From Candidatus Omnitrophota bacterium (GTDB lineage Bacteria; Omnitrophota; Gorgyraeia; Zapsychrales; Zapsychraceae), in assembly GCA_015233405.1 (NCBI GenBank), contig JADFXT010000007.1, positions 390 through 64,389 on the forward strand: 64,000 nt of DNA, written 5' to 3'. The notes beneath the pieces were generated by a model, which was given only the letters and a program-made list of their open reading frames with translations, was not told where the DNA came from and ran no database searches. Positions 28,994 to 56,100 of this stretch are shown in pieces (positions within the stretch are counted from its first letter, which is position 1; each line of letters starts with the position of its first letter). The translations under genes and the position numbers were made by a program.

Positions 28994-29504
28994 AAGGGAA
29001 AAGCTACTTTTTTATATCACCATGACATCGGTCATCTTGACCGTGGCAGCCCATATTTTTATTTTGCCGTGGCTCCAGAAACGAGATGCCTTGACCCGGC
29101 AGATCGCGTTTATAAAAACAAAATTGAATAAATCATTGGCCCTTTTACAGCAAAAGGATTCTTTTGCGGATGTCCTGGAGCAATCCCGTGCGTGGGCTGA
29201 GGAGCTGGAAAAGTCGAAAGACCCGGCGGTCGCGGTCTTGCTGGAACTGGAATCATTAGCGAAGAAGTCGGGTATCACAATTACAGATATTAGGCCGAGA
29301 AGCTCGTCAGGGATTTCTTCTCATAAAGAGTTGGTTATTGATGTCAGAACACAGGGTGCCATTAAGTCGTATATTCAGTTTATGTTTGATGTGAAGCATT
29401 CGATGTCGTTACTCAACATAAAGAAATTTCAATTAAACGTGAAAACAAATGGGGATGTTTTGGATGGGGCCTTTTCTATCCAATCCTTAGAGACCGACAA
29501 ATGA
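28974..29504 (+). CDS. GspM/PilO-like bitopic protein
   Basis: The ATG at 28974 gives a short cytoplasmic N-terminus, a TM helix LLFYITMTSVILTVAAHIFIL, a coiled coil and a ferredoxin-like C-terminal part. The track's longer N-terminal extension overlaps the preceding gene out of frame. Confidence 0.45.
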   Translation: MLKQLNKREKLLFYITMTSVILTVAAHIFILPWLQKRDALTRQIAFIKTKLNKSLALLQQKDSFADVLEQSRAWAEELEKSKDPAVAVLLELESLAKKSGITITDIRPRSSSGISSHKELVIDVRTQGAIKSYIQFMFDVKHSMSLLNIKKFQLNVKTNGDVLDGAFSIQSLETDK

Positions 29505-30034
29505 ACCGGCGATTTCCTCCTAAAGAAAAATTATTGTGGTTGGTTATTCAGCAAAAGGGCATTGTGTTTTTTTCTCATTTTTCCGTAAAAAAGTTGGCGG
29601 TAGGAGCGGTGATCGTTTCTTTCTTGTATTGTGCGATAGTTTTCGGATATTCATCAGCTTGTTTAAAAGAAATCAAGATTTTGCCGCCGATGGCAAAATT
29701 GACATTGCACAATAATAAAAGGATTCTTAAAAAAGAAAAACCGCTGGAGGCCTATCTCACCAACGTCGAGAATAGAAATATTTTTTCTTTCTCGGATTTA
29801 AACAGCGTTCAGGAGAAAGCCGTTAGAGTAAATGGTATGGATTCCATGAAAGATATCATGCTTGTTGCTATTCTCCTCGGAGAAAATCCTCAGGCGGCCA
29901 TTCAAAATAAAAATACGCAAAAAATTTTTTATGTGACCAGAGGGCAATTTGTCGGGGAGCTACAGGTCGACGATATTCAGGAAGGGAAGGTCTTTCTGAA
30001 TTATAACGGAACGCGATATGAATTTGATTTATGA
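29501..30034 (+). CDS. GspC/PilP-like bitopic protein (candidate secretin-interacting component)
   Basis: One TM helix (VGAVIVSFLYCAIVFGY) and a small C-terminal beta domain (VTRGQFVGELQVDDIQEGKVFLNYNGTRYEFDL). It sits immediately upstream of the secretin. Confidence 0.35.
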   Translation: MNRRFPPKEKLLWLVIQQKGIVFFSHFSVKKLAVGAVIVSFLYCAIVFGYSSACLKEIKILPPMAKLTLHNNKRILKKEKPLEAYLTNVENRNIFSFSDLNSVQEKAVRVNGMDSMKDIMLVAILLGENPQAAIQNKNTQKIFYVTRGQFVGELQVDDIQEGKVFLNYNGTRYEFDL

Positions 30035-30050
30035 CGCCCAAGGAGACGTT

Positions 30051-38589: not shown

Positions 38590-38620
38590 AGGCAGGAGTT
38601 GGAGGCTCCTGCCTTTTTTA
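38590..38620 (+). terminator. Orphan plus-strand intrinsic terminator in a gene-free AT-rich region
   Basis: A 9-bp stem AGGCAGGAG / CTCCTGCCT with a 7-nt loop, followed by TTTTTT. There is no ORF upstream on the plus strand between 38340 and 38590. Confidence 0.5.
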
Positions 38621-38763
38621 TTTGTTTACCTGCCTCTCAATGTTTTCTAGCGAAGGTAAACAACCCTTGACGGTTCTGTTCGTCAAGGGTACAAGTAAGC
38701 AAAAAAATATCGTGTAGGGGTTTCCACCTCCCAGCAAACGCTTTCAGCTAGTACCGTGATTTA

Positions 38764-38793
38764 TTGGCAAATATAATAAATATATTTTATACT
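38764..38793 (+). promoter_or_regulatory. Candidate promoter of the giant-gene-1 leader
   Basis: TTGGCA (38764-38769), an 18-nt spacer and TATACT (38788-38793). The same architecture is conserved upstream of the second leader (TTGGTA / TATACT at 49783-49812). Confidence 0.35.
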
Positions 38794-38810
38794 TATTAAG
38801 GAAACAGATT

Positions 38811-38899
38811 TAGTGAACCGAAACGGCAAACCCATCGTAAGGTGGGGACGCAAAGTTAGAGGGTCCTGGAATAGGATAGCCTGACTACCGAAGTCGCTA
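38811..38899 (+). promoter_or_regulatory. c-di-GMP-I (GEMM-I) riboswitch-like aptamer, copy 1
   Basis: It contains GGCAAACC-CAUC-GUAA(GNRA)-GGUG-GGGACGCAAAG, which matches the conserved GEMM-I core (Vc2: GGCAAACCAUUCGAAAGAGUGGGACGCAAAG). The 3' part AGCCUGACUACCGAAG resembles Vc2 AGCGGGGUUACCGAUG. The closing helix is UAGUGA (38811-16) / UCGCUA (38894-99). Confidence 0.75.
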
Positions 38900-38909
38900 G
38901 AATATTTAA

Positions 38910-38948
38910 GCCTATTCCTAATGATGCACGGGAGTAGGCATTTTTTTT
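38910..38948 (+). terminator. Intrinsic terminator serving as the expression platform of riboswitch copy 1
   Basis: GCCTATTCC (38910-18) pairs with GGAGTAGGC (38931-39, one G-U) and is followed by T8. GGAATAGG inside the aptamer (38868-75) can pair with the terminator 5' arm instead, forming an anti-terminator. Confidence 0.7.
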
Positions 38949-38989
38949 GGGGAAGCTTATGAAGTAAAAGCGATATAAAGAATGTTTTT

Positions 38990-39097
38990 GTCATCCCCGC
39001 AATTTTTAGGCGGGGATCCACAAGGGTTGAAGACATGGATTCCCGATAGAGGATTTCGGGAATGACAGCTGAAGGTGAAGATCGCGGGAATGACAGC
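38990..39097. repeat. Cluster of GC-rich REP-like hairpins in the leader of giant gene 1
   Basis: ATCCCCGC-9 nt-GCGGGGAT (8-bp stem), ATTCCCGA-9 nt-TCGGGAAT (8-bp stem), and a half-site CGCGGGAATGACAG. The GTCAT(C/T)CCC...GGGAATGACAG family recurs at 50017-50143 and 62184-62260. Confidence 0.7.
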
Positions 39098-39149
39098 AGT
39101 GAAAAAGGAATGACCAGTGTAGTTTAGGACGAAGAAACGGGGGCAATAG

Positions 39150-42100
39150 ATGTTTAGGGGGCAAGGCACAACAAGAAGTAACATACTAAAGACTATTAGT
39201 CTTATAGTTCTTTTTATTTTTATCCCTCAGACTTTATTCGCTCAAGTGGTTTTATCCGGCGGGGTTACTCTGCCTACGCCCGGCACGATGGTGTCTTTAA
39301 GCCAGCCGTTTCATCCCGCGGTAGTCAAAGGCCTGAAAGTTTATCCGGACAATCCGCTACGTTTTGATTTCATATTGGATAAAGGCGACGCCTTTAGCCA
39401 ATATGACCCTGAGCGACCAACGGGAGCTCAAGGGTTACAACTGAAAAAAGAATCCGAGAAGCTCATTAAATATTTCCTCGCCTCCTTGACCATTCCCGAG
39501 AAAGACCTGTGGGTCAACTTATCTCCGTATGAAAAAGACCGCATTATCCCTGAGGCCTTTGGCCAGACGGACATGGGCCGAGATCTCTTGGCGCAGGATT
39601 ATATCTTAAAACAGATCACGTCATCCTTGATGTACCCGGAAAGTAAATTGGGAAAGAAATTTTGGGATGAAATTTATAAAAAATCGTATGAGCTTTATGG
39701 TGTAACGAACGTGCCGGTCGATACATTTAATAAAGTCTGGATTGTTCCCGATAAAGCGGTTGTGTATGAGAACCAAAACCGCGCGTTTGTGGTTGAGGCA
39801 AAATTGAAAGTGATGTTGGAGGAGGACTATGTTGCTGCGCAACAGACTAAAGACCATAGACTCCAGACGATAGACCAGCCTTCGGCTGAAAAAAGGTCTG
39901 TGGTCTCTGGTCTAGGGTCTTCAGTCTCAGACCTGACAAGGTCTGTTATTCTTCCCGCGATTGAAAAAGAAGTCAACGAAGGCCAGCAATTCGCCCAGCT
40001 ACGGCAGGTTTATTATTCGCTGATCCTTGCTACCTGGTTTAAGCGAAACTTAAGAGAGAGTATTTTTGGAAAAGCCTATGTCGGCAAAAATAAAATTGCC
40101 GGTGTGGATATTAAAGATAAGGAAATCAAAGAGAAGATCTATGCCCAATATTTGGAATCTTTTAAGAAGGGTGCTTACAACTATATTAAAGAAGAATATG
40201 ATCCGGCGACGAAATCTGTGATTCCCAGGAAATATTTCTCCGGCGGGTTTGGGTTCGAGAAGATGGACGCTGCGATGACAACCACAAACAATTACTCCGA
40301 TCTGCTTAAAAATACGGCAGGTCTTGTTGTCATCGAGAGTAAGATTGATAAAACAACGGCAAATATGAGCCATGCAGAAGCCATCAAGACGCGGGTCGTC
40401 AAAGATAGGGATTGGCCTCAGGAGTATTTAAAAGGGCATGTTTATGTATTAATTAAGAAAGCCGATTTCGTCTTGCCTGTCACCGAGACTGTGGACGAGG
40501 CGATGACGGGTATTGCTACGAAGTTTGTCGACGGGATTGGAAATTTGACAGTCCTGCGTCGGCTGGGTGATGCCAGACATGTGGTTTACGTCATGAGAGA
40601 GATGAGCACAAACAAAACCTATTTCTTAAAGATTTTGCCGAATGAGCTTTTTGCTGAGGAATGGCTTCATTACCGGTTAGCCAAACGCTTAAAGGTCAAT
40701 ATTCCACGGTTTTTCAATGTGTCGCCGGAATTTTATCAAGACATGATTGGCGTTCCTCAATCCCTTCGCTCGCCAGGAACATCGCGCGGCATTATTACTT
40801 CTGATGTGAACGAAATGGGGATTGATGATCTTCTGGAGAAGCAAGGTTCCGGGCTTGAAGCCGCTTTTGTTTTTATTCAATTTTCTTTGCACCTGGATGT
40901 TGAATTCGACGGAAATCTCAATTCCGTTATGCCCACTATTGCGGGGAAACAGAGGTTCATTCTTTATGATTTTGGCGACACGTTCCCGTCATTTTGGATT
41001 ACGAATACCCCGCTTAGGGACACAGAATACACAAAGCAAAATGTGAAGACCCGGGTTTCTCAGAAATGGGAGTTGTATAAGGATAGGATTGACCCGCAAC
41101 GTTTAATCGAAGCAATCCGTCAGTTGATTTCCTTGACGCCGGATGAAGTAAAGGAAATGGCGCTCGAGAGCGGGTATTCATCTGACCAGATTGATTTGGC
41201 CCGATTCGAACGCCGTAAAAAGGAATTGATCCCGGAGATCATCACTGTCCTCGAAGAAGCGCAGAAAGACTCGGCCATGATGACCTGGTCGGTGAAAAGT
41301 CTAGCTGCCTTAGGATTGACATCTTTAGCGGCGTTCAGTTTATTTGTCTCGCCTGTTTCTGGTCGAGAACATGTGTCCATTTCAAAGCCCGCGATAACCA
41401 TGGGTATCGGCGCTCAAAGAAATGTTGACCTGTCGGGCAAGGTTTTTAATGTTACCCCTGCTCAATATGAAGATGCTTACAACATGCCGCCTTTGTGGCG
41501 GTCTTTTTCATATCCTTTAGGAGAAGAAGGCAGAGACCTTTCCTCATTTAAGTCGCTCACTCTTTCCGTCGAGGGGCACGGAAATGTTTTTATTGAATTT
41601 GAAGACCAGGGCAATCCGCGCCAGCGGGCCTCAAGTCCTGTCTATACTGTGCGCGATGGCAAAGTGGTCATAGACGTCGAGCAATTGAGGATAAATTTCC
41701 CTCATGTGAATTTTCAGAAAATAAGAGAAATCATCGTCAACGTCGGAAATCGTTTCTATGATATTGAACTCAATGCTCCCGGCGCCGACATCAAAGTTAC
41801 TGGGACCCCTCAATTTAGCCAAGAGAACGTTAGTCATTTTAATCCCGAGCAGGCACTATCCCAGCTGCCAACGGCCCAGCAGATCGAAAATCAGCATAGC
41901 CAACAGCGACAGCAGTTATTCGAGTCATTGACGCTTCCCGACGGGCATCTTGTCCAACAGTCGGATGCATTATCCCATGGATTTTTTGGCGGAAGAATTC
42001 AAGCTGTTAAGGAATTGCGTGACAAGGTCTTGAACAAAGCTTCAGACCGTCGGGATGCTTTGACGCTTTTACGGCATGAGCTTTTTAATCCGGCCCAGAA

Positions 42101-45100
42101 TACCAATTTACGAGCATATATCTATTATCTTTTGAAAGATGTCTTAAAAGCCGGGCTTACGTTCGATGAGGAAAGTCTCCTCGAGAATTTTTTGACCAGA
42201 TCTTATAAGGTCACTGACCCTATTGCCGTCAAGTTCCCGTACATTAAAGCGGATCAGACGAAACCGGATTTTTATGAATTCCAGTTAAACGGCGGCCGGT
42301 TCGACGGAAATGGTTATCTTTACGGCGTGGAAGGCTTGCCGGTCCCAGTCGAACATATGGTCGAGCGTATTGTTGACGGGCGGACAATGGAGCGTCTAGC
42401 GTATTGGTCGATTCTAATGAACATCGACCCGCTTAAGATGACATTTCCTATTATTTATACGGAATCGTTGTTGGGCGCTTTTCCGGAAAAACAGTTTAAT
42501 ATCATGTGCATTCATAGTCCGGACATCAACGCTCAGTTAAGCCCGCAGAATATCGCCTTAAGAGACCGGCTTCTTTCCCAATTTTCTTCAAACAATCCGG
42601 AAGATTTCTTGATGAATAAGATCATTGTTACCGGACTGATCTTGATGCAGGACGGTTTTAATGTGCATACGAACAACGGCAGTCTGGCTTCTCGTCTTCA
42701 AGGTTATAACGGTTACGGATGGCTTAAAATTGGCGACGAGACCGTGAATATGGCTAGAGATCCGAGAATCGGTAAAAGAGCGGCTTTGATCGGTAATAGT
42801 CTTGATCCGAAATTCAAAGATATTGTTAACGCTGTAGCCAAAAAAATAGGATATCAAGTCCCGCGGCTTCCACAAAATTTGAAGGGTTACACGGTTGGGA
42901 TAAAAAACATCGTCTCGCTTGCTTCTGTATCTGGAAAACAAGGGGACTTTGCGATGACTGTTTCCGCGCCCCAGATGTTCGGTCATCGAGGAGCTTTTGA
43001 TGTCAGCCAAGGCATCTTTGAAAATAGTCTTGAGTCCTTTAGACGAGCAATGGTGATGGGCTTGGATGGTTTTGAATTAGATGTTCGTTTAAATGAAAAC
43101 GGCGTTTTGATTGTTGTTCATCCTAAGGCGGCCAGCACAGTAAAGACCCCGACTTTCCAGGAAGTTTTTGATTTGGTAAAGAATTCCAAAATCCAGTTAC
43201 AGGTCCATATTCAGGACATGAACAGCGTCAATAAGGTTGTTGAATTCATTGCGCAGAATAAATTTGAAAAGAGAGTGACGATCAGCTCGACAAACCTGGA
43301 CATATTAAAAAAGGTGCGCAGCCGGAACCAAACCATAGCGACGGCCTTTATCCTTAAGGACCTAGCCACTACGAAGTTGTTGTTAAGAGATGCCCAAGAG
43401 GCGAAAATTACTTTGTTGGATTTATCGCTGCGTGATCCTCGAGACATCTTAACCAAGGATGTCGTCGATCTGATTCATTCAGCAGGAATCAAAGTGAACG
43501 CCGGATTTAAGTTGTTAGACGAACAAACAGCTCAAAAAATGGTCGGGTTTGGCGTCGACAGAATTATATCTGAATCTCCAGAGACCATGAAGAATCTTAA
43601 GGATTCACTCGCAAAGGTTGATAAAGCGATGTTGGCAGGAAAAATGTTTAGAAAATTCTTATGGTTTTTTGCCGTGCCGTTTATCTTTCAGATGACGACG
43701 CCGGCTGTAGTGTCAGCGCAGAATCTGAATATTAAACAAGCTAATGTGACATTTTCTGTTCCCCTTACTTACAAAAATGGATTTTCACCTGATTTCAGTA
43801 ACTCTAATTTTTCTGTTTCTGTCAAAACAAACATAGCGACAGCCAATGTTTGGACGACGGGATTTTTAAAACATTTTTATGGTTCGGCCAAGCTGGCCAA
43901 CAATAATTTTACTGTAAACGAAAAGACATTAGCTCAAATAAAAGTAGGGTTAGGTTTAATTAGCGATGAAGGATTAGGAGAAGCCACAAAAGAATTTGCT
44001 GCAACAGGACTTAAAAAGTTTGTTGGAAGTGTTGACCGTGCCATAGTAACGGACTCGAAGGCTGTTCAGCGGCCGCTGGTTGACAATCCGATTGATCCGG
44101 TGAAAGCTAAACAATGGGTCGCGGCGCAAGGAGCTTCAGAGATTCGTGACCTTGCTCAGTTTTTACTTAATCATGTGACGCATGTTTCGCAAAAGGAATT
44201 TGAAACGGCGCTTCAAGAAACCGTCAATGATTTTAATGCCAACATGGGCGACAAACCGTATATTTTAGTGTTTCCGTCGGAGAATGAAGATCGAAGTATC
44301 GGGTGGACATATCAATTGGCTTTGGAGAAAGGATTAAAACCGGCTCAGCATGTCATAAGATTGGATCAGCTGGATGTAGCACAACAGATCAGTAAAACGG
44401 GCGTTCACGACATTGTCTTGATAGATGATGCTGTTTATTCCGGACATCAAATGTTATCTCATGTCCGCAAATTATTTAAGGCGATGCGTAAAGACAGCCT
44501 GGACAGTAGCGATTTTAATTTTCATTTTGTTACGCCGTTTATGTCTGCTCATGTTGAGGAAAAATTCTTTTCACAACTTCGAAGCTTTCATTATAAAGCC
44601 ATTTTTAAAGCCCTCTTTAAAGGATCTCGAAGGTCAGAGGGGAGAACGGTATTTTATAAACACCGTTCTATGCCGAATTTGTCACAGATTTTCCGTTCTG
44701 AACCGAAGCGTGAGGCCTTGTTTAAACAGCTCGTCGATATGCCTAAAATATTGTATGAATTTATGACGTTAACTTATTTTCAGCATAAAGTCGCTGATGG
44801 TCTTTCAATGGTCGATTGGCTTTCTAAAGGGTCTGTGCATACGGAATTTGTCATTGCAGGGTCAGTGTATAAAGTTAAAGAAAACGAAAAGAATATCAAA
44901 GCAATCCGATTTATTCCCGAAACAATCCCTCCTTATGAAAAGAATTATTTAGAGAAAGTCCAGGGCACAGCCGGTAGCGAAGCCGACCGTGCCATGGCGA
45001 CGGCTTCGACGACGGTGCAGCGGCCGCTGGTCGATAATCCTATTGATGTTGAAAAATCCAAACAATGGGTCGCGGCGCAGGGGACTCCGGAACTTCGCGA

Positions 45101-48100
45101 CCTTGCGCAGTTTCTCTTAAATCATGTGACGCACATTACGCAAAAGGAATTTGAAGCGGCGCTTGAGAACATGGTCAATGATTTTAATAGCAAGTTAGGT
45201 GACAAGCCGTATGTTTTAATAATGCCGAGGGACAAAGGAGAGCGTAGTGAATCGTGGACATATCAGCTGGCTTTGGAAAAAGGGTTAAAACCTGCGCAAT
45301 ATATTATCAAGACAGATGGAGGCGTATTGTCTTATGACCAAAGAATTTTAAAAGATGTCAAAAATGTTGTCTTCATCGATGATGCTTTCTATTCGGGAAC
45401 ACAGGTGCTCAATGCGTCCCAGGCGTTGCTAAGTCATATAACGGTTTTCGATCCCCAAGATATTAATATTCATTTCCTCACGCCGTTTATGACATCTTTT
45501 GCTCAGAATAAGATCCTAACCAATCCCAAAGCTTTTGTTTATCAGCATCAGACAATGCCGACCATATCGGACATTCTTGCCTCTAATGCTGAGTATGAGA
45601 AATTATTTAAAACTCTCATTTATGAAAATATTGACCGTGGATATCCAGGCATAACGCTAACGTATTTCCAACATAAAGTGGCTGATTCCGTTTCAGTCCT
45701 CAGTTGGGTCTTTGGTGGCTATGTTTATGAACAAAAACGTAAAGTGAGCAATCAGACAATTCCCTTTATTCCCGGGACCTTTCCTCCTTATACAGAGGGT
45801 TATTTAAACATCATCAAGATGTATTCATCGAATGCCGTTAAAAACAATGCGGATGGGGCTATGACCACATCTTCGACGGAAGTTCAACGTCCGTTGAAGG
45901 ACAATCCGATCGATATGGAAAAAGCCAAGCAATGGGTCGAGGCGCATAAAGACCCGCATTTGCGTGACCTTGCGCAGTTCCTCTTAAGTCATGTCACGCA
46001 TGTCTCGCAAAAGGAATTCGAAGAAGCGCTCCAAGAAACCGTCGATGATTTTAATAGCAAGATAGGCGACAAACCGTATGTTTTGTTGCTCCCGCAGTGG
46101 AACGGGAATCGCAGTGAATGGTGGACGTATCAGCTGGCTCTGGAAAAAGGCTTAAAGCCGGCAAAGGATATTATTAAGATGGCTGCCCAAGGGGCTTCGT
46201 ATAACTCTTATCTAGCCATGGTTCAACAAATTCGGGACGCGGGAAAAGATGTTGTCCTTATTGACGATGCGGTGTATTCGGGAGTGCATATGTTAGATAT
46301 TGTCCAGCGTTTGTTCGGGGACACATGGGGCAATAACCCGGACAGTCGCGATTTGAATTTTCATTTCGTTGCGCCGTTTATGTCGACGAATATTGAAGAA
46401 AGAATTTTTGCAGATTCGAATCGTTCCGGGAACAGGAACGTGTATTTTTATAAACATCGTTTTATGCAGACATTGTCGGAGATTTTCCGTTCTGAGCCTG
46501 AGCGGCGGAAATGGTTTGAAATATTTTTTGGCATGATCGACTATTTTTATTCCTATAGGACGTTAACGTATTTTCAGCATAAAGTCCCGGATTTTCTTTC
46601 GATGTTTGATTGGATCACTCAGGGCAATATTTATGAAGAAAGACAAGGGGCTCTGGAACGGGATGCGGCCATTAAATTCATTCCTGAAACCATCCCGCCT
46701 TATGAGGAGGATTATTTAAAGAAAATAAAGTCTTCTTCATCGACGGATAAGGCGATGGCGGCGCAATCTGCCGTCCAGCGGCCGGTGGTGGATAATCCGA
46801 TTAATTGGAAGAAAGCCAATCAATGGGTCGCGGCGCAAGGAACGCAGGAACTTCGTGGTCTTGCGCAGTTTCTCTTAAATCATGTGACGCATGTCTCGCA
46901 AAAGGAATTCGAAGAAGCGCTGCAGGAAACCGTGAATGATTTTAATAGCAAGATAGGCGACAAACCCTATATCTTGCTTCTTCGAACAAGAAAAGGAATC
47001 CGCAGTGAATGGTGGACGTATCAGCTGGCTCTGGAAAAAGGCTTAAAGCCGGCAAAACATATTATTAAAGTCGGATTCCCCAGAATTGAAAATAAGCCTT
47101 CAGCTTGGTTAGAAAAATATTTTCAGGCCATTATTAAGCAAATGAAGGCAACAGGGATAAAGGATGTTGTCCGCATAGATGACGCGGTTTATTCGGGGCT
47201 CAATATGGAATCCGATATCCGAAATTTATTGTGGGCAGATAATATGAGAAATGATAATGATTCATTCTGGACGATAGATGAGTATCGTCAGGGTACGGAC
47301 GGGTTTAAGCTGCATTTCGTTGCGCCATTTATGTCCAGCGTTGGAGAAGACAAGCTCAAGGGATTAAATTCTCAGAAAGTGTCGATTTATCAGCATCGTT
47401 CTATGAAAACATTGCCGGAAATCTTTCATTTTGAGCCTGAACAAGAGAAAGTATTTAAAAAATTATTTGGCGGGATATATGCCGACGTAACACTGACTTA
47501 TTTTCAGCATAAAGTTCCTGACCATATTTCCACGCTCAATTTTGTTACGGAAGGGAATGTTCCTAAGAAAGAAAACGGGCACTTATTACGAGCAAGTCCT
47601 TCCATTCGTTTTATTGCTAAAACCATTCCTCCCTACGAGAAGAATTATTTAAAGCGAATAGCTTTCAAACGATTTAAAGAATCTTTGATTGGCATGTTTA
47701 AGCGTAAACATGATCGTGCCATGACGACGGTCCAGCGGCCGGTGGTCGATAATCCTATTGATGTTAAAAAAGCTAAAAAATGGGTCGAAGCGCAAGGGAC
47801 TCCGGAGCTACAGGATTTTGCTCGATTTTTATTGAATCATGTGACCCATATTTCACAGAAAGAATTTGAAGACGCCCTTCAGGAAGCTGTAAATGATTTT
47901 AATAACAAAATCGGCGATAAGCCGTATATTCTTCTTCTTCCGGCGGATAAAGAGGATCGCAGCGATGGATGGACGTATCGTTTAGCTTTGGAAAAGGGAT
48001 TAAAACCGCCGAAACATATCATTAGGGACAAAAGGAATTATTCATCTGTCATCCAAGAGATTCATGACACCGGCGTTAAAGATATTGTGGTCATGGATGA

Positions 48101-49757
48101 TGCTGTTTATACGGCGACACATATATTAGGGAGTGTGGAGCACACGTTTTCTTGGTATGGCAATAGTATTTATAAGGACTCAAATGATTTTCAGGTGCAC
48201 TTTGTTGCGCCGTTTATGTCCAAGGATATCGAGAAAAGAATTTTTTCACAGTTAAAGGATTATAACGTCGGACAAATATTTGTTCATCAGCATCGCGTTA
48301 TGGAGACTTTACCGGAGATTTTCCGTTCTGAGCCTAAATACAAGAGGATCTATGAGAGAATTTTTAACGAACTTGATTCTAGCGACTCTTATGTCACATT
48401 GACTTATTTTCAGCATAAAGTCCCTGATAACGTTTCAGCTCTGGGATACGTCATGGATGGGATTGTTTTTGAAAAAACGTTTCAACATGTCGTTCGTTCC
48501 ATTCAATTTATTCCTAAAACCATTCCTCCCTATGAAGAGAATTACTTAGAGCAAATAGCTTTCAAGCGATTAAAAGAATCTTTGATTCGCATGTTTAAGC
48601 GTAAGCATGATCGTGCCATGACGACGGTCCAGCGGCCGGTGGTGGACAATTCGATTGATCTGGTGAAAGCCGAACAGTGGGTTGCCGCGCACAAAGATCC
48701 ACGGATACGAGATCTTGCCCAATTCTTGCTTGATCATGTCAATCATGTGACGCAGAAAAAATTTGAAGAAGCATTGCAGGAAACCGTCGATGATTTTAAC
48801 GCCAAGATGGGCGACAAGCCGTATGTTTTGCTTGTTCCCTCATGGAGAGGAGACCGCAGCGAATGGTGGACCTATCAGCTGGCTTTAGAGAAAGGATTAA
48901 AACCGGCTAAAAATATTATCCGAATGGGAAAAACAGATTTGCGTGATGGGATGGATGTTTTGAAAGAATATTCTCAGGATATCCTTAAGCAAATCCGCGC
49001 CACAGGCGTTGTGGATATTGTTGTGATGGACGATGCCGTTTATACAGGACAACGGATATTAGAAAATCCAAGAATTTTATTACATGACAAGCATATTAAC
49101 CCACAGGAAACAAAGGATTTAAATTTCCATGTAGTTACGCCATTTATGTCTGTTGGCCTGGAAGAGAAGCTCACTCAGATGCGACAATCTTATTATGATG
49201 GAGGACAGATCTTTGTTTATAAACATCAAACTATGCCGACGATGGTAAGCATTTTCCAATCTGACCTGAAACGTAAAGCTTTGTTGGAAGAGTTTTTCCC
49301 TCATTTGGAAGAAGGTTTTCCGTATCTTACTCTGACCTATTTTCAGCATAAAGTTCCTGATGAGTTGTCGCTGTTTTATTGGGTTTTAAAAGGTAAGATT
49401 TATCAAAAAGATATTCATAAGGAAAGACCTTTGTGGATTCAGTTCATTCCTCCAACAGTCCCTCCTTATGAAGAAAATTATTTAGAAAAAATTAAGGCTG
49501 CTTCAGCGACGGATAAGGCGATGGCGACAACAAACGCGAAATATGGCGGTATTGATTTTAATCCTGAAAAAATGGATCTTCAGGTGAATGGGAGCGGTAA
49601 TGCCGAGTTGAAGGCCTTAAGCCCGGCCGCACTGGAGGAATTGAAGAATGCCCCGGGATTTACGCCGGTCATCATTAATATCAAGCCTGTGGACAGCCTG
49701 CCCGCGTTCTTGGGCCTGTCCCAAGCCCAGGTGGATGCTTCACTTTCAAAGATCTAA
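39150..49757 (+). CDS. Giant bracket-family protein 1 (3,535 aa): signal peptide, conserved N-domain, protein-kinase-like region, TM, large unknown region, GDPD-like domain, TM, 6 tandem PRTase-like modules, conserved C-terminal GGIDFN domain
   Basis: An uninterrupted 10.6-kb ORF with the signal peptide LIVLFIFIPQTLFA-QV. The kinase-like region has YFLKI, HLDVEFDGN and YDFGD (about 40509-41240). The GDPD-like region is GHRGAF..ENSLESF...GFELDVRL..NGVLIVVHP (about 42975-43600). There are six units beginning VQRP(L/V)(V/K)DNPI. The C-terminus is GGIDFNPEKMDLQV...GFTPVIINIKPVDSLPAFLGL. Confidence 0.85.
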   Translation: MFRGQGTTRSNILKTISLIVLFIFIPQTLFAQVVLSGGVTLPTPGTMVSLSQPFHPAVVKGLKVYPDNPLRFDFILDKGDAFSQYDPERPTGAQGLQLKKESEKLIKYFLASLTIPEKDLWVNLSPYEKDRIIPEAFGQTDMGRDLLAQDYILKQITSSLMYPESKLGKKFWDEIYKKSYELYGVTNVPVDTFNKVWIVPDKAVVYENQNRAFVVEAKLKVMLEEDYVAAQQTKDHRLQTIDQPSAEKRSVVSGLGSSVSDLTRSVILPAIEKEVNEGQQFAQLRQVYYSLILATWFKRNLRESIFGKAYVGKNKIAGVDIKDKEIKEKIYAQYLESFKKGAYNYIKEEYDPATKSVIPRKYFSGGFGFEKMDAAMTTTNNYSDLLKNTAGLVVIESKIDKTTANMSHAEAIKTRVVKDRDWPQEYLKGHVYVLIKKADFVLPVTETVDEAMTGIATKFVDGIGNLTVLRRLGDARHVVYVMREMSTNKTYFLKILPNELFAEEWLHYRLAKRLKVNIPRFFNVSPEFYQDMIGVPQSLRSPGTSRGIITSDVNEMGIDDLLEKQGSGLEAAFVFIQFSLHLDVEFDGNLNSVMPTIAGKQRFILYDFGDTFPSFWITNTPLRDTEYTKQNVKTRVSQKWELYKDRIDPQRLIEAIRQLISLTPDEVKEMALESGYSSDQIDLARFERRKKELIPEIITVLEEAQKDSAMMTWSVKSLAALGLTSLAAFSLFVSPVSGREHVSISKPAITMGIGAQRNVDLSGKVFNVTPAQYEDAYNMPPLWRSFSYPLGEEGRDLSSFKSLTLSVEGHGNVFIEFEDQGNPRQRASSPVYTVRDGKVVIDVEQLRINFPHVNFQKIREIIVNVGNRFYDIELNAPGADIKVTGTPQFSQENVSHFNPEQALSQLPTAQQIENQHSQQRQQLFESLTLPDGHLVQQSDALSHGFFGGRIQAVKELRDKVLNKASDRRDALTLLRHELFNPAQNTNLRAYIYYLLKDVLKAGLTFDEESLLENFLTRSYKVTDPIAVKFPYIKADQTKPDFYEFQLNGGRFDGNGYLYGVEGLPVPVEHMVERIVDGRTMERLAYWSILMNIDPLKMTFPIIYTESLLGAFPEKQFNIMCIHSPDINAQLSPQNIALRDRLLSQFSSNNPEDFLMNKIIVTGLILMQDGFNVHTNNGSLASRLQGYNGYGWLKIGDETVNMARDPRIGKRAALIGNSLDPKFKDIVNAVAKKIGYQVPRLPQNLKGYTVGIKNIVSLASVSGKQGDFAMTVSAPQMFGHRGAFDVSQGIFENSLESFRRAMVMGLDGFELDVRLNENGVLIVVHPKAASTVKTPTFQEVFDLVKNSKIQLQVHIQDMNSVNKVVEFIAQNKFEKRVTISSTNLDILKKVRSRNQTIATAFILKDLATTKLLLRDAQEAKITLLDLSLRDPRDILTKDVVDLIHSAGIKVNAGFKLLDEQTAQKMVGFGVDRIISESPETMKNLKDSLAKVDKAMLAGKMFRKFLWFFAVPFIFQMTTPAVVSAQNLNIKQANVTFSVPLTYKNGFSPDFSNSNFSVSVKTNIATANVWTTGFLKHFYGSAKLANNNFTVNEKTLAQIKVGLGLISDEGLGEATKEFAATGLKKFVGSVDRAIVTDSKAVQRPLVDNPIDPVKAKQWVAAQGASEIRDLAQFLLNHVTHVSQKEFETALQETVNDFNANMGDKPYILVFPSENEDRSIGWTYQLALEKGLKPAQHVIRLDQLDVAQQISKTGVHDIVLIDDAVYSGHQMLSHVRKLFKAMRKDSLDSSDFNFHFVTPFMSAHVEEKFFSQLRSFHYKAIFKALFKGSRRSEGRTVFYKHRSMPNLSQIFRSEPKREALFKQLVDMPKILYEFMTLTYFQHKVADGLSMVDWLSKGSVHTEFVIAGSVYKVKENEKNIKAIRFIPETIPPYEKNYLEKVQGTAGSEADRAMATASTTVQRPLVDNPIDVEKSKQWVAAQGTPELRDLAQFLLNHVTHITQKEFEAALENMVNDFNSKLGDKPYVLIMPRDKGERSESWTYQLALEKGLKPAQYIIKTDGGVLSYDQRILKDVKNVVFIDDAFYSGTQVLNASQALLSHITVFDPQDINIHFLTPFMTSFAQNKILTNPKAFVYQHQTMPTISDILASNAEYEKLFKTLIYENIDRGYPGITLTYFQHKVADSVSVLSWVFGGYVYEQKRKVSNQTIPFIPGTFPPYTEGYLNIIKMYSSNAVKNNADGAMTTSSTEVQRPLKDNPIDMEKAKQWVEAHKDPHLRDLAQFLLSHVTHVSQKEFEEALQETVDDFNSKIGDKPYVLLLPQWNGNRSEWWTYQLALEKGLKPAKDIIKMAAQGASYNSYLAMVQQIRDAGKDVVLIDDAVYSGVHMLDIVQRLFGDTWGNNPDSRDLNFHFVAPFMSTNIEERIFADSNRSGNRNVYFYKHRFMQTLSEIFRSEPERRKWFEIFFGMIDYFYSYRTLTYFQHKVPDFLSMFDWITQGNIYEERQGALERDAAIKFIPETIPPYEEDYLKKIKSSSSTDKAMAAQSAVQRPVVDNPINWKKANQWVAAQGTQELRGLAQFLLNHVTHVSQKEFEEALQETVNDFNSKIGDKPYILLLRTRKGIRSEWWTYQLALEKGLKPAKHIIKVGFPRIENKPSAWLEKYFQAIIKQMKATGIKDVVRIDDAVYSGLNMESDIRNLLWADNMRNDNDSFWTIDEYRQGTDGFKLHFVAPFMSSVGEDKLKGLNSQKVSIYQHRSMKTLPEIFHFEPEQEKVFKKLFGGIYADVTLTYFQHKVPDHISTLNFVTEGNVPKKENGHLLRASPSIRFIAKTIPPYEKNYLKRIAFKRFKESLIGMFKRKHDRAMTTVQRPVVDNPIDVKKAKKWVEAQGTPELQDFARFLLNHVTHISQKEFEDALQEAVNDFNNKIGDKPYILLLPADKEDRSDGWTYRLALEKGLKPPKHIIRDKRNYSSVIQEIHDTGVKDIVVMDDAVYTATHILGSVEHTFSWYGNSIYKDSNDFQVHFVAPFMSKDIEKRIFSQLKDYNVGQIFVHQHRVMETLPEIFRSEPKYKRIYERIFNELDSSDSYVTLTYFQHKVPDNVSALGYVMDGIVFEKTFQHVVRSIQFIPKTIPPYEENYLEQIAFKRLKESLIRMFKRKHDRAMTTVQRPVVDNSIDLVKAEQWVAAHKDPRIRDLAQFLLDHVNHVTQKKFEEALQETVDDFNAKMGDKPYVLLVPSWRGDRSEWWTYQLALEKGLKPAKNIIRMGKTDLRDGMDVLKEYSQDILKQIRATGVVDIVVMDDAVYTGQRILENPRILLHDKHINPQETKDLNFHVVTPFMSVGLEEKLTQMRQSYYDGGQIFVYKHQTMPTMVSIFQSDLKRKALLEEFFPHLEEGFPYLTLTYFQHKVPDELSLFYWVLKGKIYQKDIHKERPLWIQFIPPTVPPYEENYLEKIKAASATDKAMATTNAKYGGIDFNPEKMDLQVNGSGNAELKALSPAALEELKNAPGFTPVIINIKPVDSLPAFLGLSQAQVDASLSKI
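44064..49530 (+). repeat. Six tandem in-frame copies of the ~285-300-aa module in giant gene 1
   Basis: Module consensus: VQRPVVDNPID..KAKQWV.AQ...LRDLAQFLLNHVTHV(S/T)QKEFE.ALQETVNDFN.K(M/I)GDKPY(V/I)L.......RSEWWTYQLALEKGLKPA..II....(D/N)(V/I)V.(I/M)DDA(V/F)Y(S/T)G.....L(N/K).HF(V/L).PFM(S/T)......Y(K/Q)H(R/Q).M.T...I(F/L).....LT(L/Y)FQHKV(P/A)D.....FIP.T(I/F)PPY(E/T)..YL. (Some copies, such as the second, deviate at individual positions.). Confidence 0.9.
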
Positions 49758-49782: not shown

Positions 49783-49812
49783 TTGGTATTTTTTCTAATA
49801 AAATTATATACT
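49783..49812 (+). promoter_or_regulatory. Candidate promoter of the giant-gene-2 leader
   Basis: TTGGTA (49783-88), an 18-nt spacer and TATACT (49807-12), at the same spacing from the aptamer as in copy 1. Confidence 0.35.
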
Positions 49813-49824
49813 TATTATAGAAGT

Positions 49825-49916
49825 TAGTGAACCGAAACGGCAAACCCATCGTAAGGTGGGGACGCAAAGTTAAAGGGTCCAAAAGGAATAGGACAGCCTG
49901 ACTACCGAAGTCGCTG
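49825..49916 (+). promoter_or_regulatory. c-di-GMP-I (GEMM-I) riboswitch-like aptamer, copy 2
   Basis: The core GGCAAACCCAUCGUAAGGUGGGGACGCAAAG is identical to copy 1. Differences from copy 1 fall in loops or preserve pairing: GGAUAGCC becomes GGACAGCC, turning a G-U pair into G-C opposite GGGUCC. Confidence 0.75.
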
Positions 49917-49935
49917 AATGAGTAAAGAATTTTAA

Positions 49936-49975
49936 GCCTATTCCTAATGATGCACGGGAATAGGCATTTTTTTTT
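49936..49975 (+). terminator. Intrinsic terminator serving as the expression platform of riboswitch copy 2
   Basis: Perfect stem GCCTATTCC (49936-44) / GGAATAGGC (49957-65) followed by T9. The competing GGAATAGG lies in the aptamer at 49885-92. Confidence 0.7.
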
Positions 49976-50195: not shown

Positions 50196-53100
50196 ATGTT
50201 TAGGGGGCAAGGCACAATAAGAAGTAATATATTAAAGACTATTAGTCTTATTCTCCTTTTTATTTTTATCCCTCAGACTTTATTCGCTCAAGTGGTTTTA
50301 TCCGGCGGGGTTACTCTGCCTGCGCCCGGCACGATGGTGTCTTTAAGCCAGCCGTTTCATCCCGCGGTAGTCAAAGGCCTGAAAGTTTATCCCGAGAATC
50401 CCCTAAAGTTTGATTTCATATTGGATAAAGGCGACGCCTTTAGCCAATATGACCCTGAGCGACCAACGGGAGCTCAAGGGTTACAACTGAAAAAAGAATC
50501 CGAGAAGCTCATTAAATATTTTCTCGCCTCCTTGACCATTCCCGAGAAAGACCTGTGGGTCAACTTATCTCCGTATGAAAAAGACCGCATTATCCCTGAG
50601 GCCTTTGGCCAGACGGACATGGGCCGGGATCTCTTGGCGCAGGATTATATCTTAAAACAGATCACGTCATCTTTGATGTATCCCGAGGACAAGTTGGGTA
50701 AGAAATTTTGGGATACGATTTACAAGAAGGCTTATGAGTTGTATGGAAGAACGGACATCCCGGTGGACACCTTTAATAAGGTCTGGATCGTTCCGGATAA
50801 GGCTGTGGTCTATGAAAACCCCGCGCCCAAAGTTGGTGAAGCGACAGCTTTCGTCGTAGAAGCAAAATTAAAGGTTATGTTGGAGGAGGACTATGTTGCT
50901 GCGCAACAGACTAAAGACCATAGACTCCAGACGATAGACCAGCCTTCGGCTGAAAAAAGGTCTGTGGTCTCTGGTCTAGGGTCTTCGGTCTCAGACCTGA
51001 CAAGGTCTGTTATTCTTCCCGCGATTGAAAAAGAAGTCAACGAAGGCCAGCAATTCGCCCAGCTACGGCAGGTTTATTATTCTTTGATCCTCGCTACCTG
51101 GTTTAAGCGAAACTTAAGAGAGAGTATTTTTGGAAAAGCCTATGTCGGCAAAAATAAAATCGCCGGCGTTGATATTCAAGATAAAGACGAGAAGCAAAAG
51201 ATTTATAACCAATACCTCGAGGCATTCAAGAAAGGCGCTTATAACTACATCAAAGAGCAGTACGACCCGTCGACGAAGACCATTGTCCCGCACAAATATT
51301 TTTCCGGCGGTTTTGGGTTTGAGGGCATGGATTCCGCGATGACAACCACAACGAATGCTGCTGATTTAGGCCCTCAACAAGGCCTTGTTGTCATTGAGAG
51401 CAATATCAAGAAAACAACAAAAGAAGGCTCCGAGATATCAGGCGTTCCAGAAGCGGGCGCGGCTATGGCGACGGCTCCGTCGGCCGTCCAGCGGCCGGTG
51501 GTGGATAATTCAATTGATCCTAAAAAAGCCGAACAGTGGGTCGAGGCACAAGAACCAGATTATCGTGACCTCGCTAGATTCTTACTGAATCATGTGACGC
51601 ATGTTAGCCAAGAGGAATTTGAGGCGGCACTTCAGGAAACCGTTAATGATTTTAACGCCAAGATGGGTGACAAACCATATGTTTTAGTGCTCTCGCGGCA
51701 AGGACGTAGTGAAGAGTGGACGTATCAACTCGCATTGGAAAAAGGATTAAGACCTGCAAAGCATATCATTAAATTAGCTAATGGCGTCATGCCAGATAGC
51801 GCGCGGACGCTTTTGCAGAAAATATCGGATGTCGTGTTCATGGATGATGCTGTTTATACGGCATCACTGCTGACATCAACAGTATCGGGCTTTGTGCAAA
51901 GCCTGCCTTGGGCGAAAGTGCGAAATCTTAATTGCCATCTTTTAATACCGTTTATGACTTCTTTTGGTGAACAGAGAATTTCTTCCCGGGATCTCAATAT
52001 CAAGCTTTATAAGCACCATTTAATGCCGACGCTGCCGGAAATTTTGCGTTCTGACGTTGGGCGGAATTGGGCACCAGAGTTTGAAAAGATTTTTCATGGT
52101 TCTGTGGATAAAACATTTTCTGGTATGACACTCACATATTTTCAGCATAAAATTCCAGATTTTATTTCCGCGCTTGCTTGGCTTTTTAACGGCGAAACAT
52201 TAAAAAAAGGATTGGTCGGGCCTAATTATTCAACTAATTGGGTTCGATTTATTCCTGAAACCATCCCGCCGTATGAGAAAGATTATTTAAAGAGAATCCA
52301 AGAGCTCCCGTCTGACGCGGCCATGGCGACGCAATCTGCCGTCCAGCGGCCGGTGGTTGACAATCCGATTGATATGGCTAAGGCGAAACAATGGGTCGAG
52401 GCGCAAGAACCAGATTATCGCGACCTCGCTCAATTCTTACTGAATCATGTGACGCATGTTAGCCAAGAGGAATTTGAGGCGACACTTCAGGAGGCTGTTA
52501 ATGATTTTAACGCCAAGATGGGCGATAAACCGTATATTTTAGTGTACTCGTGGAAAGGAAAAAAACGGAGTGAATGGTGGACGTATCAATTGGCTTTAGA
52601 AAAAGGATTAAAGCCGGCGAAGCATATCATCAATTCAGGCGGCGGCTTGTTATCAACAAGTGACCAGATGCTTTTGCAGGAAACGCCGGATGTTCTGTTC
52701 GTAGATGATGCGGTTTATTCCGGAACGCAGATGTCGATAACAGTAAACGGATTTTTTGGCGACATAACTTCACTAAACAAAGCAGGTCTTCGTTGCCATT
52801 TTCTTGTGCCATTTATAACTTCTTCGGGGCAGGAGAAAATTTCTTCCGTGGCGCTAAATTCTAAGTTTTATAAACACCGTTTGATGCCGATGCTGTTGGA
52901 AATTTTAAATTCTGACATTAGCCAGAAGCGGATATCAGAATTTGAGAAGATTTTTGGCCCTAAAAATATTCATGGAATGACGCTCACGTATTTTCAGCAT
53001 AAAGTTCCTGATTCGGTCTCTATGCTTTTGTGGATTTCCGGGGGGAATGTACTTACAAACTACAATCAAAATGCCATACGTACGGGAATGATTCGTTTTA

Positions 53101-56100
53101 TTCCTTCGACTATTCCTCCTTATGAGAAAGATTATTTAAAGAAGATTCAAGAGCTCCCCTCTGATGCGGCGATGGCGACAGCTCCGACGGCTGTTCAACG
53201 GCCGCTGGTTGATAATCCGATTGATGTTAAAAAAGCTAAGAAATGGGTCAAGGCGCAGGATCCTGATTTACGTGAGCTTGCGCAATTCTTGCTTGACCAT
53301 GTGACCCATATTACGCAGAAAGAATTTGAAGAAGCTCTGCAGGAGGCTGTCGATGATTTTAATGCCAAGATGGGCGACAAACCATATATTTTAGTGCTCT
53401 CGTGGAAAGGAAAAAAACGAAGTGAATGGTGGGCCTATCAGTTGGCCTTGGAGAAAGGATTAAATCCGGCGAAACATATCATCAATTTAGATGAGGTAGG
53501 TGATAACGAAATATCAAAAAGCGATCAGATGCTTTTGAAGGACGCCCCGGATGTTGTTTTCCTAGATGATGCCATGTATTCCGGAACGCAGATGTCGGAA
53601 ACAGTGGAAGCTTTGGTGCAGAAGATGCCCTTTAGGTGGAACCCGGAAAATCTTAATTATCATTTTCTTATACCATTTATGACTTCATTTGGTAAGAAAG
53701 AAATTTCTTCCAAAATTCGACCTAAGTTTTACAAGCACCGTTTGATGCCGACGCTCCAGGAAATTTTTAGTTCTGATGCTGGGCGAAAGAGGGTATTAGA
53801 GTTTGAAGATATTTATCGTGACTCTGTGGAAGGAAAGAAATTTGCTGGAATGACGCTCACATATTTTCAGCATAAGGTTCCCGACCAGGTCTCGATGGTT
53901 TCGTGGATTTCCAATGGAGAAATATTGTCAAGTGATATTGTTAGGCGTGCGAATAAAATGCCATTTATCCCTGAAACAATCCCGCCTTATGACGAGAATT
54001 ATTTAGAGGAAATTAAGGCTGCTTCATCCCGCACGGCAGGCAGCGAATCTGACCATGCTATGGCAACGGCTCCGACGACTACTGTCCAGCGGCCGGTGGT
54101 GGACAATCTAATTGATGTTGAAAAAGCTAAGAAATGGGTCGCAGCGCAAGGAACTCCGGAGATTCGCGAGCTTGCCCAATTCCTACTTGACCATGTGACT
54201 CATGTTAGTCAAAAAGAATTTGAAGCGGCGCTTCAGGAAACCGTCGATGATTTCAATAAGAAGATGGGCGATAAGCCGTATGCTTTTGTTATCTTGAGGC
54301 CGTCGTGGAAAGGGGACCGCAGTGAATTTTGGACCTATCAGTTGGCTTTGGAAAAAGGGTTAAAACCAGCCAAATATATTATTAAGACGGAAGAAGATCT
54401 TTCAATCTTTGTTCAAAGGGATTTGAGGAATGTAAATGATATTGTCTTCATGGATGACGCGGCTTATTCCGGAGGACAAATATTAGCTAAAAGAAACAGA
54501 TTTCTTTTTAACTCAAAGGCTCTGAATTTCAACAATCTTAATATGCATTTTGTTATGCCATTTATGTCGTCTTATGCCAAAAATAAACTCCTTTCTCAGC
54601 CGCATGTCTTTATTTATAAGCATCATTCTATACCGACATTGTCGGAAATTTTTAGCTCTGATGTTGGGAAAAAACAGAAGCGGGTGTTTGATTCTCTGGG
54701 TAAGAGATTTGCAGGTCTCACACTGACTTATTTTCAGCATAAGGTCCCTGATTATTTTTCCGCTTTTCAATGGCTTTTTGAGGGCGTTGTAGTGAAAGAA
54801 AAGTCGAAAGCGCAAATTAAATTTATTCCTGAAACAATTCCGCCATATGAAAAAGATTATTTAAAGAAGATACGGATTTCTTTATTTAAGGGGAAGAAGA
54901 GAAAAGCTGATGCCGCGATGGTGACGCAATCTGCCGTCCAGCGGCCGGTGGTGGACAATCCAATTGATATGGCTAAGGCGAAACAATGGGTCGAGGCGCA
55001 TAAGGACCCTGCTGTCCGCGACCTTGTCGAGTTTTTACTTAACCATGTGACCCATGTTACACAAAAGGAATTTGAAGCGGCGCTTCAGGAAACCGTCAAT
55101 GATTTTAACTCCAAGATGGGCGACAAGCCGTATGTTTTATTACTTCCGGCGTGGAAGAGAGGCCGCAGTGAGCTGTGGACGTATCAATTGGCTTTGGAAA
55201 AGGGATTAAAACCGGCAAAGCAGATCATAGAAGCTGGAGATAATCTGAATCTAGTTCAACAGATTCGCTCGACGGGCATAAAAGATTTAATTCTGATGGA
55301 TGATGCGGTCTATTCGGGAAAGCAGACATTAGATAAAGTTTACGATGTATTTAGGTATGTGCAGAGCAGCGAACTAAACAACCGGGACCTAAATCTGCAT
55401 TTTGTTGCGCCGTTTATGTCTCTCGGGGTAGAGAACAAAATTTCTTCAGGTTTGCAACGATATAAAATAGGGGAAATGTTTGTTTATAAGCATCGTTCTA
55501 TGGAGACGTTGCCGGAGATTCTCCGTCATGAGCCCGAGCGTAAGGAAGTCTTCGAACAGTTTTATCCCTCTTTTGAGGATTATTATCAATATATTACGTT
55601 GACTTATTTTCAACATAAAGTTGCTGATAGCGTTTCAATGCTTCCGTGGCTTTCCGGAGGGAATGTATTGGAAATGGTAGGAGGCGGAAGAGAAGTCTCC
55701 TCTGTCAGAGTTAACTTTATCCCTGAGACAATCCCGCCTTATGACGAGAATTATTTAGAGGAAATTAAGGCTGCTTCATCCCGCACGGCAGGCAGCGAAT
55801 CTGACCATGCTATGGCGACGGCTCCGACGGTCGTCCAGCGGCCGGTGGTGGATAATCCTATTGATCCGGTGAAAGCTAAACAATGGGTCGAGGCGCATGA
55901 TCCGGAGCTCCGTGACCTTGCTCAGTTTTTGCTGAATCATGTAACTCATGTTAGCCAAGAGGAGTTTGAAGCGGCGCTGCAGGAAACTGTCAATGATTTT
56001 AACGCCAAGATGGGCGACAAATCGTATATTTTAGTGCTCTTGCGGCCAGGACATAGTGAAGAGTGGACGTATCAACTGGCTTTGGAAAAAGGATTAAAGC

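Follow-up and report, generated by a model that had tools for sequence, protein, structure and literature searches.

Predicted class I c-di-GMP riboswitches precede two giant genes of an Omnitrophota bacterium and probably act as transcriptional OFF switches

Two giant genes lie one behind the other on the plus strand of a 64,000-nucleotide (nt) stretch of DNA from Candidatus Omnitrophota bacterium (assembly GCA_015233405.1, contig JADFXT010000007.1, positions 390 to 64,389 of the forward strand). This whole stretch is referred to here as the window, and positions are counted from its first letter. Each of the two genes is preceded by a structured leader in which a candidate riboswitch for cyclic di-GMP (c-di-GMP) is followed by an intrinsic terminator. 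The features of the two leaders and their genes are as follows.

38764..38793 (+): sigma-70-like promoter of copy 1, TTGGCA-18 nt-TATACT (promoter scan, 10/12 matches)
38809..38901 (+): c-di-GMP-I aptamer with extended P1 (Rfam match 38816-38893; outer P1 38809-16 / 38894-901)
38868..38875 (+): predicted anti-terminator strand GGAAUAGG, covering loop and distal 3' side of aptamer hairpin 2
38877..38899 (+): alternative hairpin enclosed by the anti-terminator, UAGC-cu-GACU / AGUC-GCUA (from minimum-free-energy structures)
38910..38948 (+): intrinsic terminator of copy 1; 10-base-pair (bp) stem 38910-19 / 38930-39, 10-nt loop, one A, U8 at 38941-48
38983..39072 (+): leader module of two inverted palindromic units, with hairpins 38993-39017 and 39039-39063
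39150..49757 (+): giant gene 1, 3535 amino acids; signal peptide, Omnitrophota-specific N-terminal domain, GDPD, six stretches of Pfam PRTase-CE, conserved C-terminal motif
49783..49812 (+): promoter-like site of copy 2, TTGGTA-18-TATACT (promoter scan)
49825..49916 (+): second c-di-GMP-I aptamer (Rfam match 49830-49910, 62.3 bits)
49936..49975 (+): terminator of copy 2; stem 49936-45 / 49956-65, then U9 at 49967-75
50196..62120 (+): giant gene 2, 3974 amino acids from the start homologous to gene 1; signal peptide, ten PRTase-CE stretches

In the first leader (38764-39150, plus strand), the promoter is followed by the structured segment 38809-38901, a 10-nt linker, the terminator hairpin, U8, about 200 nt and the ATG; the transcription start was placed near 38800 by inference. 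The whole 64-kb window was scanned with the covariance models of Rfam 15 (cmscan, gathering threshold). Exactly two matches were found, both on the plus strand, both over the full model and both in clan CL00126: 38816-38893 (60.4 bits, E value 9.3e-12) and 49830-49910 (62.3 bits, E value 2.7e-12), each assigned to RF03167 (gathering score 59). At each site, on the simplest reading, one lower-scoring model of the same clan (two in all) also reached its own gathering score and was suppressed; this model is presumably RF01051, with a gathering score of 35 bits. Moreover, the conserved GEMM-I core GGCAAACC...GGGGACGCAAAG...AGCC...UACCGA was found in the window aptamer. A first-pass annotation of this DNA had called a GEMM-I aptamer here, and both the match above the gathering threshold and the RNA string that it quoted, which is present at 38811-38899 on the plus strand, 339 nt 5' of the ATG at 39150, uphold that call. 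It had also proposed a match to RF01051 as the check; a clan-level match above threshold was obtained, but the top model was RF03167 and not the family it named.

The minimum-free-energy (MFE) structure of the copy 1 leader reproduced P1, both hairpins and the terminator (z = -2.9), and the arrangement of two hairpins on P1 was seen in the alignment as well. Among Omnitrophota, the first hairpin covaries, its strands reading CCCAUC/GGUGGG in the window, CCCGGG/CCCGGG at locus L017 and CUCGGA/UCCGGG at locus L036. A GUAA tetraloop (38836-39) stands on this hairpin, and the distal part of the second hairpin has a CC:GG step (C38865-66 / G38874-75). Costa and Michel, in 1995, are said to have set out the rule by which a GUAA tetraloop is expected to suit a CC:GG step. 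The bases that contact the ligand were then compared. In the Vibrio cholerae riboswitch Vc2, c-di-GMP contacts G20, A47 and C92, equivalent to G12/A39/C104 of Vc1 (PMC4744006; PMC11218506). Their equivalents in copy 1 are G38825, A38852 and C38888 (positions 10, 37 and 75 of the RF03167 model), and the same bases are found in copy 2. The spacing of 27 nt between the G20 and A47 equivalents (38852 - 38825) is that of Vc2 and Vc1 (PMC4744006). A universally conserved interhelical C-G pair, C44-G83 in Vc2, has its C three bases before A47 (PMC4744006; PMC11218506). The equivalents C38849 (the C of GAC) and G38879 (in the AG bulge of AGCC) are present in both copies and are predicted to form this tertiary pair.

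Given that RF03167 was the top model, membership of the window elements in this GGC-variant family was considered and rejected: both copies have A at the A47 equivalent (model position 37), and the RF03167 consensus reads GCGAAg where both copies read GCAAAG. Here "GGC" is taken to name positions 20/47/92, an assumption that comes from our reading of the consensus. Specificity for 3',3'-cyclic GMP-AMP (cGAMP) was likewise rejected, the G20 equivalent being G in both copies; according to Kellenberger and Nelson, both in 2015, cGAMP selectivity reportedly goes with A at position 20. The first-pass annotation had taken as G20 the base immediately 5' of CAAACC (38826), which proved to be the G of the closing G-C pair. 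Because the true equivalent, 38825, is also G, its conclusion on specificity (c-di-GMP over cGAMP) stands. Since the window sites carry neither the G that defines the GGC variant nor the cGAMP-type A20, the element is best read, from its sequence, as a canonical class I c-di-GMP aptamer with the G/A/C pattern, and we treat the top RF03167 score as an outcome of clan competition and not of membership.

Both leaders have a G+C-rich hairpin directly before a U-tract, the arrangement that marks an intrinsic terminator. The stems are 10 bp long with -13.7 kcal/mol when folded alone; in copy 1 (arms GCCUAUUCCU, 38910-19, and GGGAGUAGGC, 38930-39) the stem is followed by A and U8, and in copy 2 by A and U9. 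The copy 1 hairpin was also present in the MFE structure of the whole leader. A consensus terminator scanner with a loop range of 3-8 nt did not list the hairpin of either copy, because the 10-nt loop is above the usual size and beyond that range. The platform of a hairpin plus T8 claimed in the first-pass annotation was thus borne out as an intrinsic terminator, with the stem counted here as 10 bp instead of nine.

How the aptamer might be coupled to the terminator is indicated by an exact 8-nt inverted repeat, GGAATAGG (38868-75) and CCTATTCC (38911-18), complementary at 8/8 positions. In the RNA, the strand GGAAUAGG of the second hairpin exactly complements CCUAUUCC (38911-18) in the 5' arm of the terminator. 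In copy 2 the corresponding strand, AGGAAUAGG at 49884-92, gives a 9-nt match and a 9-bp helix. When the aptamer was subjected to 20000 dinucleotide shuffles, a complement at least as long to the 10-nt arm occurred in 208/20000 shuffles (~1%) for copy 1 and in 32/20000 (0.16%) for copy 2. The octamer had been claimed earlier to occur both in the aptamer and as the terminator 3' arm, which would allow an anti-terminator. The complementarity is indeed exact in both copies, but the 3' arm of copy 1 reads GGAGUAGG and not GGAAUAGG; the exact octamer is found in the 3' arm only in copy 2.

The platform was examined by folding transcripts ending at successive points, including forced structures. The full-length MFE structure consisted of aptamer plus terminator (-44.8 kcal/mol). 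When the transcript ended at 38920, so that the 5' arm of the terminator was out and the 3' arm was not, the MFE structure was an anti-terminator helix enclosing the hairpin 38877-38899, to which the second hairpin and P1 each contribute their 3' strand. At this decision point, the anti-terminator of copy 1 had -30.4 kcal/mol, compared with -26.7 kcal/mol for the forced Rfam-type aptamer and -29.6 kcal/mol for the best aptamer-like fold; in copy 2 the values were -33.1 and -25.0 kcal/mol. In silico, the pairing GGAAUAGG/CCUAUUCC predicted in the first-pass annotation is therefore the fold of lowest energy for either copy at this point. In the full-length MFE structure the aptamer stands beside the terminator without a nucleotide in common, so ligand binding cannot oppose the terminator. 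The anti-terminator, in turn, excludes both aptamer and terminator, while these two are compatible with each other, which is the architecture of an OFF switch. The OFF polarity suggested earlier, with some reservation, is supported by these modelled energies.

Taken together, these data suggest that each leader is probably a class I c-di-GMP riboswitch acting as a transcriptional OFF switch on its adjoining giant gene. Transcription would begin about 10 nt 5' of the aptamer. At high c-di-GMP, the ligand would lock P1 and both hairpins, probably including docking of the GUAA tetraloop on the CC:GG step of the distal second hairpin. In the bound state GGAAUAGG and the P1 3' strand would be unavailable, so that the downstream CCUAUUCC would pair with GGA(G/A)UAGG; the 10-bp/U8 terminator would then form and transcription would end about 200 nt before the start codon. 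At low c-di-GMP, GGAAUAGG would pair with CCUAUUCC as soon as the latter had emerged, supported by the nested hairpin of the aptamer 3' strands. The anti-terminator thus formed would block the terminator, and the giant gene would be transcribed. A ligand that added several kcal/mol to the aptamer would reverse the order of the folds. The CC:GG step overlaps the anti-terminator strand, and docking there, if it occurs and the rule on GUAA tetraloops applies, would help to hide that strand. We infer ligand binding, in vivo polarity and tetraloop docking; aptamer identity, contact bases, terminator, complementarity and energy ordering were computed. The second switch lies 72 nt 3' of the stop codon of gene 1. 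Because no other terminator lies between them, it would also gate read-through from gene 1 to gene 2.

The two leaders were compared with each other. They align from the promoter onward, and collinear DNA homology extends over 38774-40357 and 49796-51418. Identity is 68% in the promoter, ~94% in the aptamer, 97% in the terminator and 99-100% in the next 125 nt. Synonymous third positions are 96% identical in codons 1-100, then ~80%, and then 62% (codons 300-400); the remainder of the two giant proteins is ~49% identical. The riboswitch was duplicated together with its giant gene, and the pattern of identity suggests that gene conversion has recently acted on a tract covering the leader and the 5' part of the gene (38764-40350 and 49783-51400). 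Because this tract would span the leaders, the copies are not independent and their near-identity is no proof of selection. Three substitutions between the copies fall in paired positions, and all keep pairing in aptamer, anti-terminator and terminator. U38877>C (G.U to G-C) and A38899>G (U-A to U.G) are tolerated in the aptamer fold, and together they turn a U-A pair into C-G in the alternative hairpin 38877-38899. G38934>A changes U.G to U-A in the terminator.

The proteins encoded downstream belong to a very large Omnitrophota family. Its N-terminal domain of ~370 amino acids, which both giant proteins carry (39150-40300 in gene 1), gave more than 1900 hits in proteins of ~400 to more than 6000 amino acids, and the family C-terminal motif GGIDxxP...G(L/F)TPVI...FLG lies at 49500-49757 in gene 1. 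The middle parts are diverse and enzyme-like, including kinases, methyltransferases, glycolytic enzymes and GGDEF (proteins P0001-P0240). From sequence, the family resembles a shared chassis for export or anchoring that carries changing cargo. In the protein database, entry P0121 is 100% identical to gene 1, and P0122 is gene 2 (HQL24_05680); the two lie together on a 130-kb contig of an Omnitrophica metagenome-assembled genome. The public annotation of gene 2 gives 4003 amino acids from an ATG inside the palindromic repeat (GGGAATGACAG; window 50109-50195). This start is probably 87 nt too early, the homologous start MFRGQG... being at 50196. A conserved upstream open reading frame (ORF) in the leader was also considered and rejected: ATG 39062 opens a 21-codon ORF in copy 1 that is not conserved in copy 2, where a 1-nt indel makes it run into the giant gene.

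Riboswitches were then sought at 160 family loci from genome and metagenome collections, where the best N-terminal identity to the window genes is ~63%. Rfam was run on 20 loci and gave one match. A first regular expression found only L017 and L113 and proved too strict, missing three loci; our own covariance model R2, which agrees with Rfam on those 20 loci, was used with Rfam confirmation. In this way, c-di-GMP-I aptamers were found upstream of the family gene at L017, L036, L066 and L113 (4/160 loci). The resulting ~3% is a lower bound, because the first expression had overlooked three loci; nevertheless, such a small minority led us to reject the riboswitch as a general feature of the family. 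Riboswitch control is recurrent among proteins with this N-terminal domain, not typical of them. A link between the switch and PRTase-CE cargo was rejected as well: three other PRTase-CE proteins could be placed on contigs, and their upstream gaps of 23-120 nt leave no room for a switch.

Three of these leaders (L017 1509-1655, L036 1396-1546 and L066 1394-1547) are orthologous c-di-GMP-I leaders from different Omnitrophota metagenome-assembled genomes (MAGs). Their second hairpin carries an insertion of ~66 nt, and in the alignment the stem sequence of their terminators varies while the G+C-rich hairpin and T-run are kept. L017, like the window, has A and not G at the A47 equivalent. The aptamer at L113 (1223-1326, with the leader continuing to ~1370; RF01051, 51.9 bits) is arranged differently: its 3' part CCGAAUUGCCAA (CCGAAUUGCC) doubles as the 5' arm in a terminator of 12 bp with a U8 tract behind it, an ON-type arrangement. 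A further c-di-GMP-I aptamer, at L077 49-138 in an Omnitrophica MAG (RF01051, 65.6 bits), lies 1.9 kb 5' of the family gene and presumably controls a different gene.

Several observations weigh against an OFF switch responding to c-di-GMP. The best Rfam model is that of a variant family (RF03167). The two copies are not independent, with 97-100% identity from the terminator to codon 100; covariation support for the platform amounts to one compensatory pair, and the closest N-terminal relatives are only ~63% identical. The chance of the copy 1 complementarity arising in shuffles is as high as ~0.01, and the anti-terminator and aptamer folds of this copy are nearly isoenergetic (-30.4 and -29.6 kcal/mol). 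The polarity comes from nearest-neighbour energies, which are blind to tertiary structure and ligand. In addition, the terminal loop of the second hairpin holds the greater part of GGAAUAGG (6/8 bases in copy 2), so the strand would not be fully hidden in the bound state; ~6 bp between the ligand-bound aptamer and the terminator arm might still form and make the switch weaker. A different explanation is that the aptamer is real but has no ligand response in vivo, and that the terminator is a largely constitutive attenuator whose read-through is set by other factors, such as proteins that act on the 200 nt of leader and the palindromic module within it. The ligand-free full-length MFE structure already holds the terminator, the leader 3' of the terminator is long, structured and highly conserved, and the Bc1 riboswitch of Bacillus thuringiensis is OFF regardless of c-di-GMP in vivo (PMC11218506). 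We nonetheless consider this unlikely, given that the anti-terminator complementarity is exact in both copies and energetically ahead at the decision point; an anti-terminator that wins there would be superfluous for a constitutive terminator.

That RF03167 was the best-scoring model of the clan at L017 and at the two window sites raises the question of whether the ligand is a related cyclic dinucleotide or another signal; this family reportedly goes back to Weinberg et al. in 2017 and was meant for variants whose specificity was suspected to differ. Such a ligand is distinctly improbable, since the scores of 60.4 and 62.3 bits are barely above the threshold of 59, another clan model exceeds its own gathering score at each site, and the window has A where the RF03167 consensus has G (position 37), together with G at position 10 and C at position 75. 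An ON switch, or control of translation or RNA stability in place of termination, appears very unlikely here. Although the ON arrangement at L113 indicates that both polarities occur in the phylum, in the window no nucleotide is common to aptamer and terminator, both of which are present in the MFE structure, and 256 nt separate the end of the aptamer from the start codon, too great a distance for direct masking of the ribosome-binding site. Finally, the terminated leader RNA of ~150 nt could itself be the product, as a trans-acting small RNA or a c-di-GMP sponge, with gene control secondary. Terminated riboswitch transcripts that act in trans are known from Listeria (SreA/SreB), and the unit of promoter, structured RNA and strong terminator is self-contained and present in two copies. 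However, this unit always stands directly 5' of a gene in the same orientation and was duplicated with that gene, and no target complementarity was found, though none was sought; a role of this kind is extremely unlikely. The OFF switch on the adjoining gene remains the preferred reading.

Between terminator and start codon, each leader contains the palindromic module of ~90 nt, with units GTCATCCCCGC...GCGGGGATCCA and TGGATTCCCGA...TCGGGAATGACAG. It occurs three times in the window (38983-39072, 50010-50119 and 62174-62266) as inverted pairs that fold into multi-branch structures; the third copy, 3' of the stop codon of gene 2, has diverged and shows two compensatory pairs. One arm has the sequence GTCAT(T/C)CCCG-loop-CGGG(A/G)ATCCA; its inverted partner is TGGATTCCCG-loop-CGGGAATGACAG. 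No Rfam match to the module was obtained at E values up to 10, and our own model R1 of it found strong copies only within the window. The same palindrome of ~27 nt (GTCATTCCCGCGAAAGCGGGAATCCAG or its complement) is present in other Omnitrophota, in 5' untranslated regions, close to the ends of genes and within the sequence that codes for the N-terminal domain:

L040 1848-1891: palindrome
L132 2209-2228: palindrome
L146 1461-1485: palindrome
L162 10665-10684: palindrome
L163 2525-2544 and 8739-8758: palindrome, two sites

By its sequence the module looks like a repeat of the repetitive extragenic palindrome (REP) or REPIN kind, and it may have no relation to the switch.

Large proteins of secreted or toxin-like type abound in the wider region. 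Upstream, at 9244-19446, lie SpvB/TcdB/Rhs-repeat (Tc-toxin-like) genes for 895 and 2069 amino acids, and 21738-31613 holds a complete type II secretion / type IV pilus-like operon (GspE, GspF, GspG, minor pseudopilins, GspK, PilM/N and secretin). The ATPase of this operon carries an MshEN domain, its N-terminus having two tandem 24-residue MshEN-like motifs without the leading Arg. MshEN is a known c-di-GMP-binding module. Two strong terminator-like hairpins, 38590-38614 (plus strand) and 38663-38690 (minus strand), separate the riboswitch promoter from a minus-strand PhoH/PIN gene (36969-38306); the plus-strand hairpin has no plus-strand gene ending close to it.

Omnitrophota are an uncultured phylum, many of whose members are believed to be tiny and host-dependent. 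Their giant genes are conspicuous and functionally opaque, and the switch proposed here gives a testable statement on when two of them are made, which would likely be at low c-di-GMP. In other bacteria, c-di-GMP governs the choice between motile and attached life, and the switch would tie the giant proteins to this signalling pathway. A further and doubtful possibility, offered tentatively, is that the overlap of the anti-terminator with the tetraloop-receptor end converts docking, and not just P1 closure, into termination, and that the window switches, together with at least those at L017, L036, L066 and L113, form a c-di-GMP regulon that shuts down some of the giant secreted cargo proteins and is possibly linked to the type II secretion system nearby. 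If this regulon were real, it would offer a first way into how these uncultured bacteria control their lifestyle.

Class I c-di-GMP riboswitches have been known since 2008, and the window elements can be set beside several of them. Vc2 has a GAAA tetraloop with an 11-nt-type receptor; the window has a GUAA tetraloop, the CUAAgg receptor segment of the RF01051 consensus is absent, and the junction that precedes G20 is perhaps shorter by one base. Vc2 and Vc1 (RF01051) match the window in the core, G20/A47/C92, the interhelical C-G pair and a GNRA tetraloop on the first hairpin (PMC4744006). RF03167 is the best model at both sites and fits in the lengths of P1 and hairpins, but it has G at the A47 equivalent where the window and L017 have A. 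In the cGAMP riboswitches of GEMM-Ib, as at Geobacter pilM, the fold and the clan are the same (PMC9262584; PMC7266159); the pilM element, however, is an ON switch. Bc1 has a 220-nt expression platform with two terminators and a Zur site (PMC11218506). Its distance of ~220 nt from aptamer to start is comparable to the 256 nt in the window, and repression is terminator-based in both, whereas the window has one terminator followed by a palindromic REP-like module in place of two terminators and the Zur site. In Cd1, from the flgB leader of Clostridioides difficile, the aptamer can form alongside the terminator, an anti-terminator competes with both, and c-di-GMP shuts expression off (PMC9262584). 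Cd1 and the window share the class I aptamer, the intrinsic terminator and the OFF logic inferred here. However, the Cd1 anti-terminator uses the P1 3' strand, while in the window it would use the loop and distal stem of the second hairpin, with the P1 3' strand only in the nested helper hairpin; and Cd1 acts on flagella in Bacillota, the window switches on giant secreted proteins in Omnitrophota. The mechanism proposed is thus a known one; what is unusual is the phylum, how large the controlled genes are and of what kind, and that the loop of the second hairpin would serve as the anti-terminator strand.

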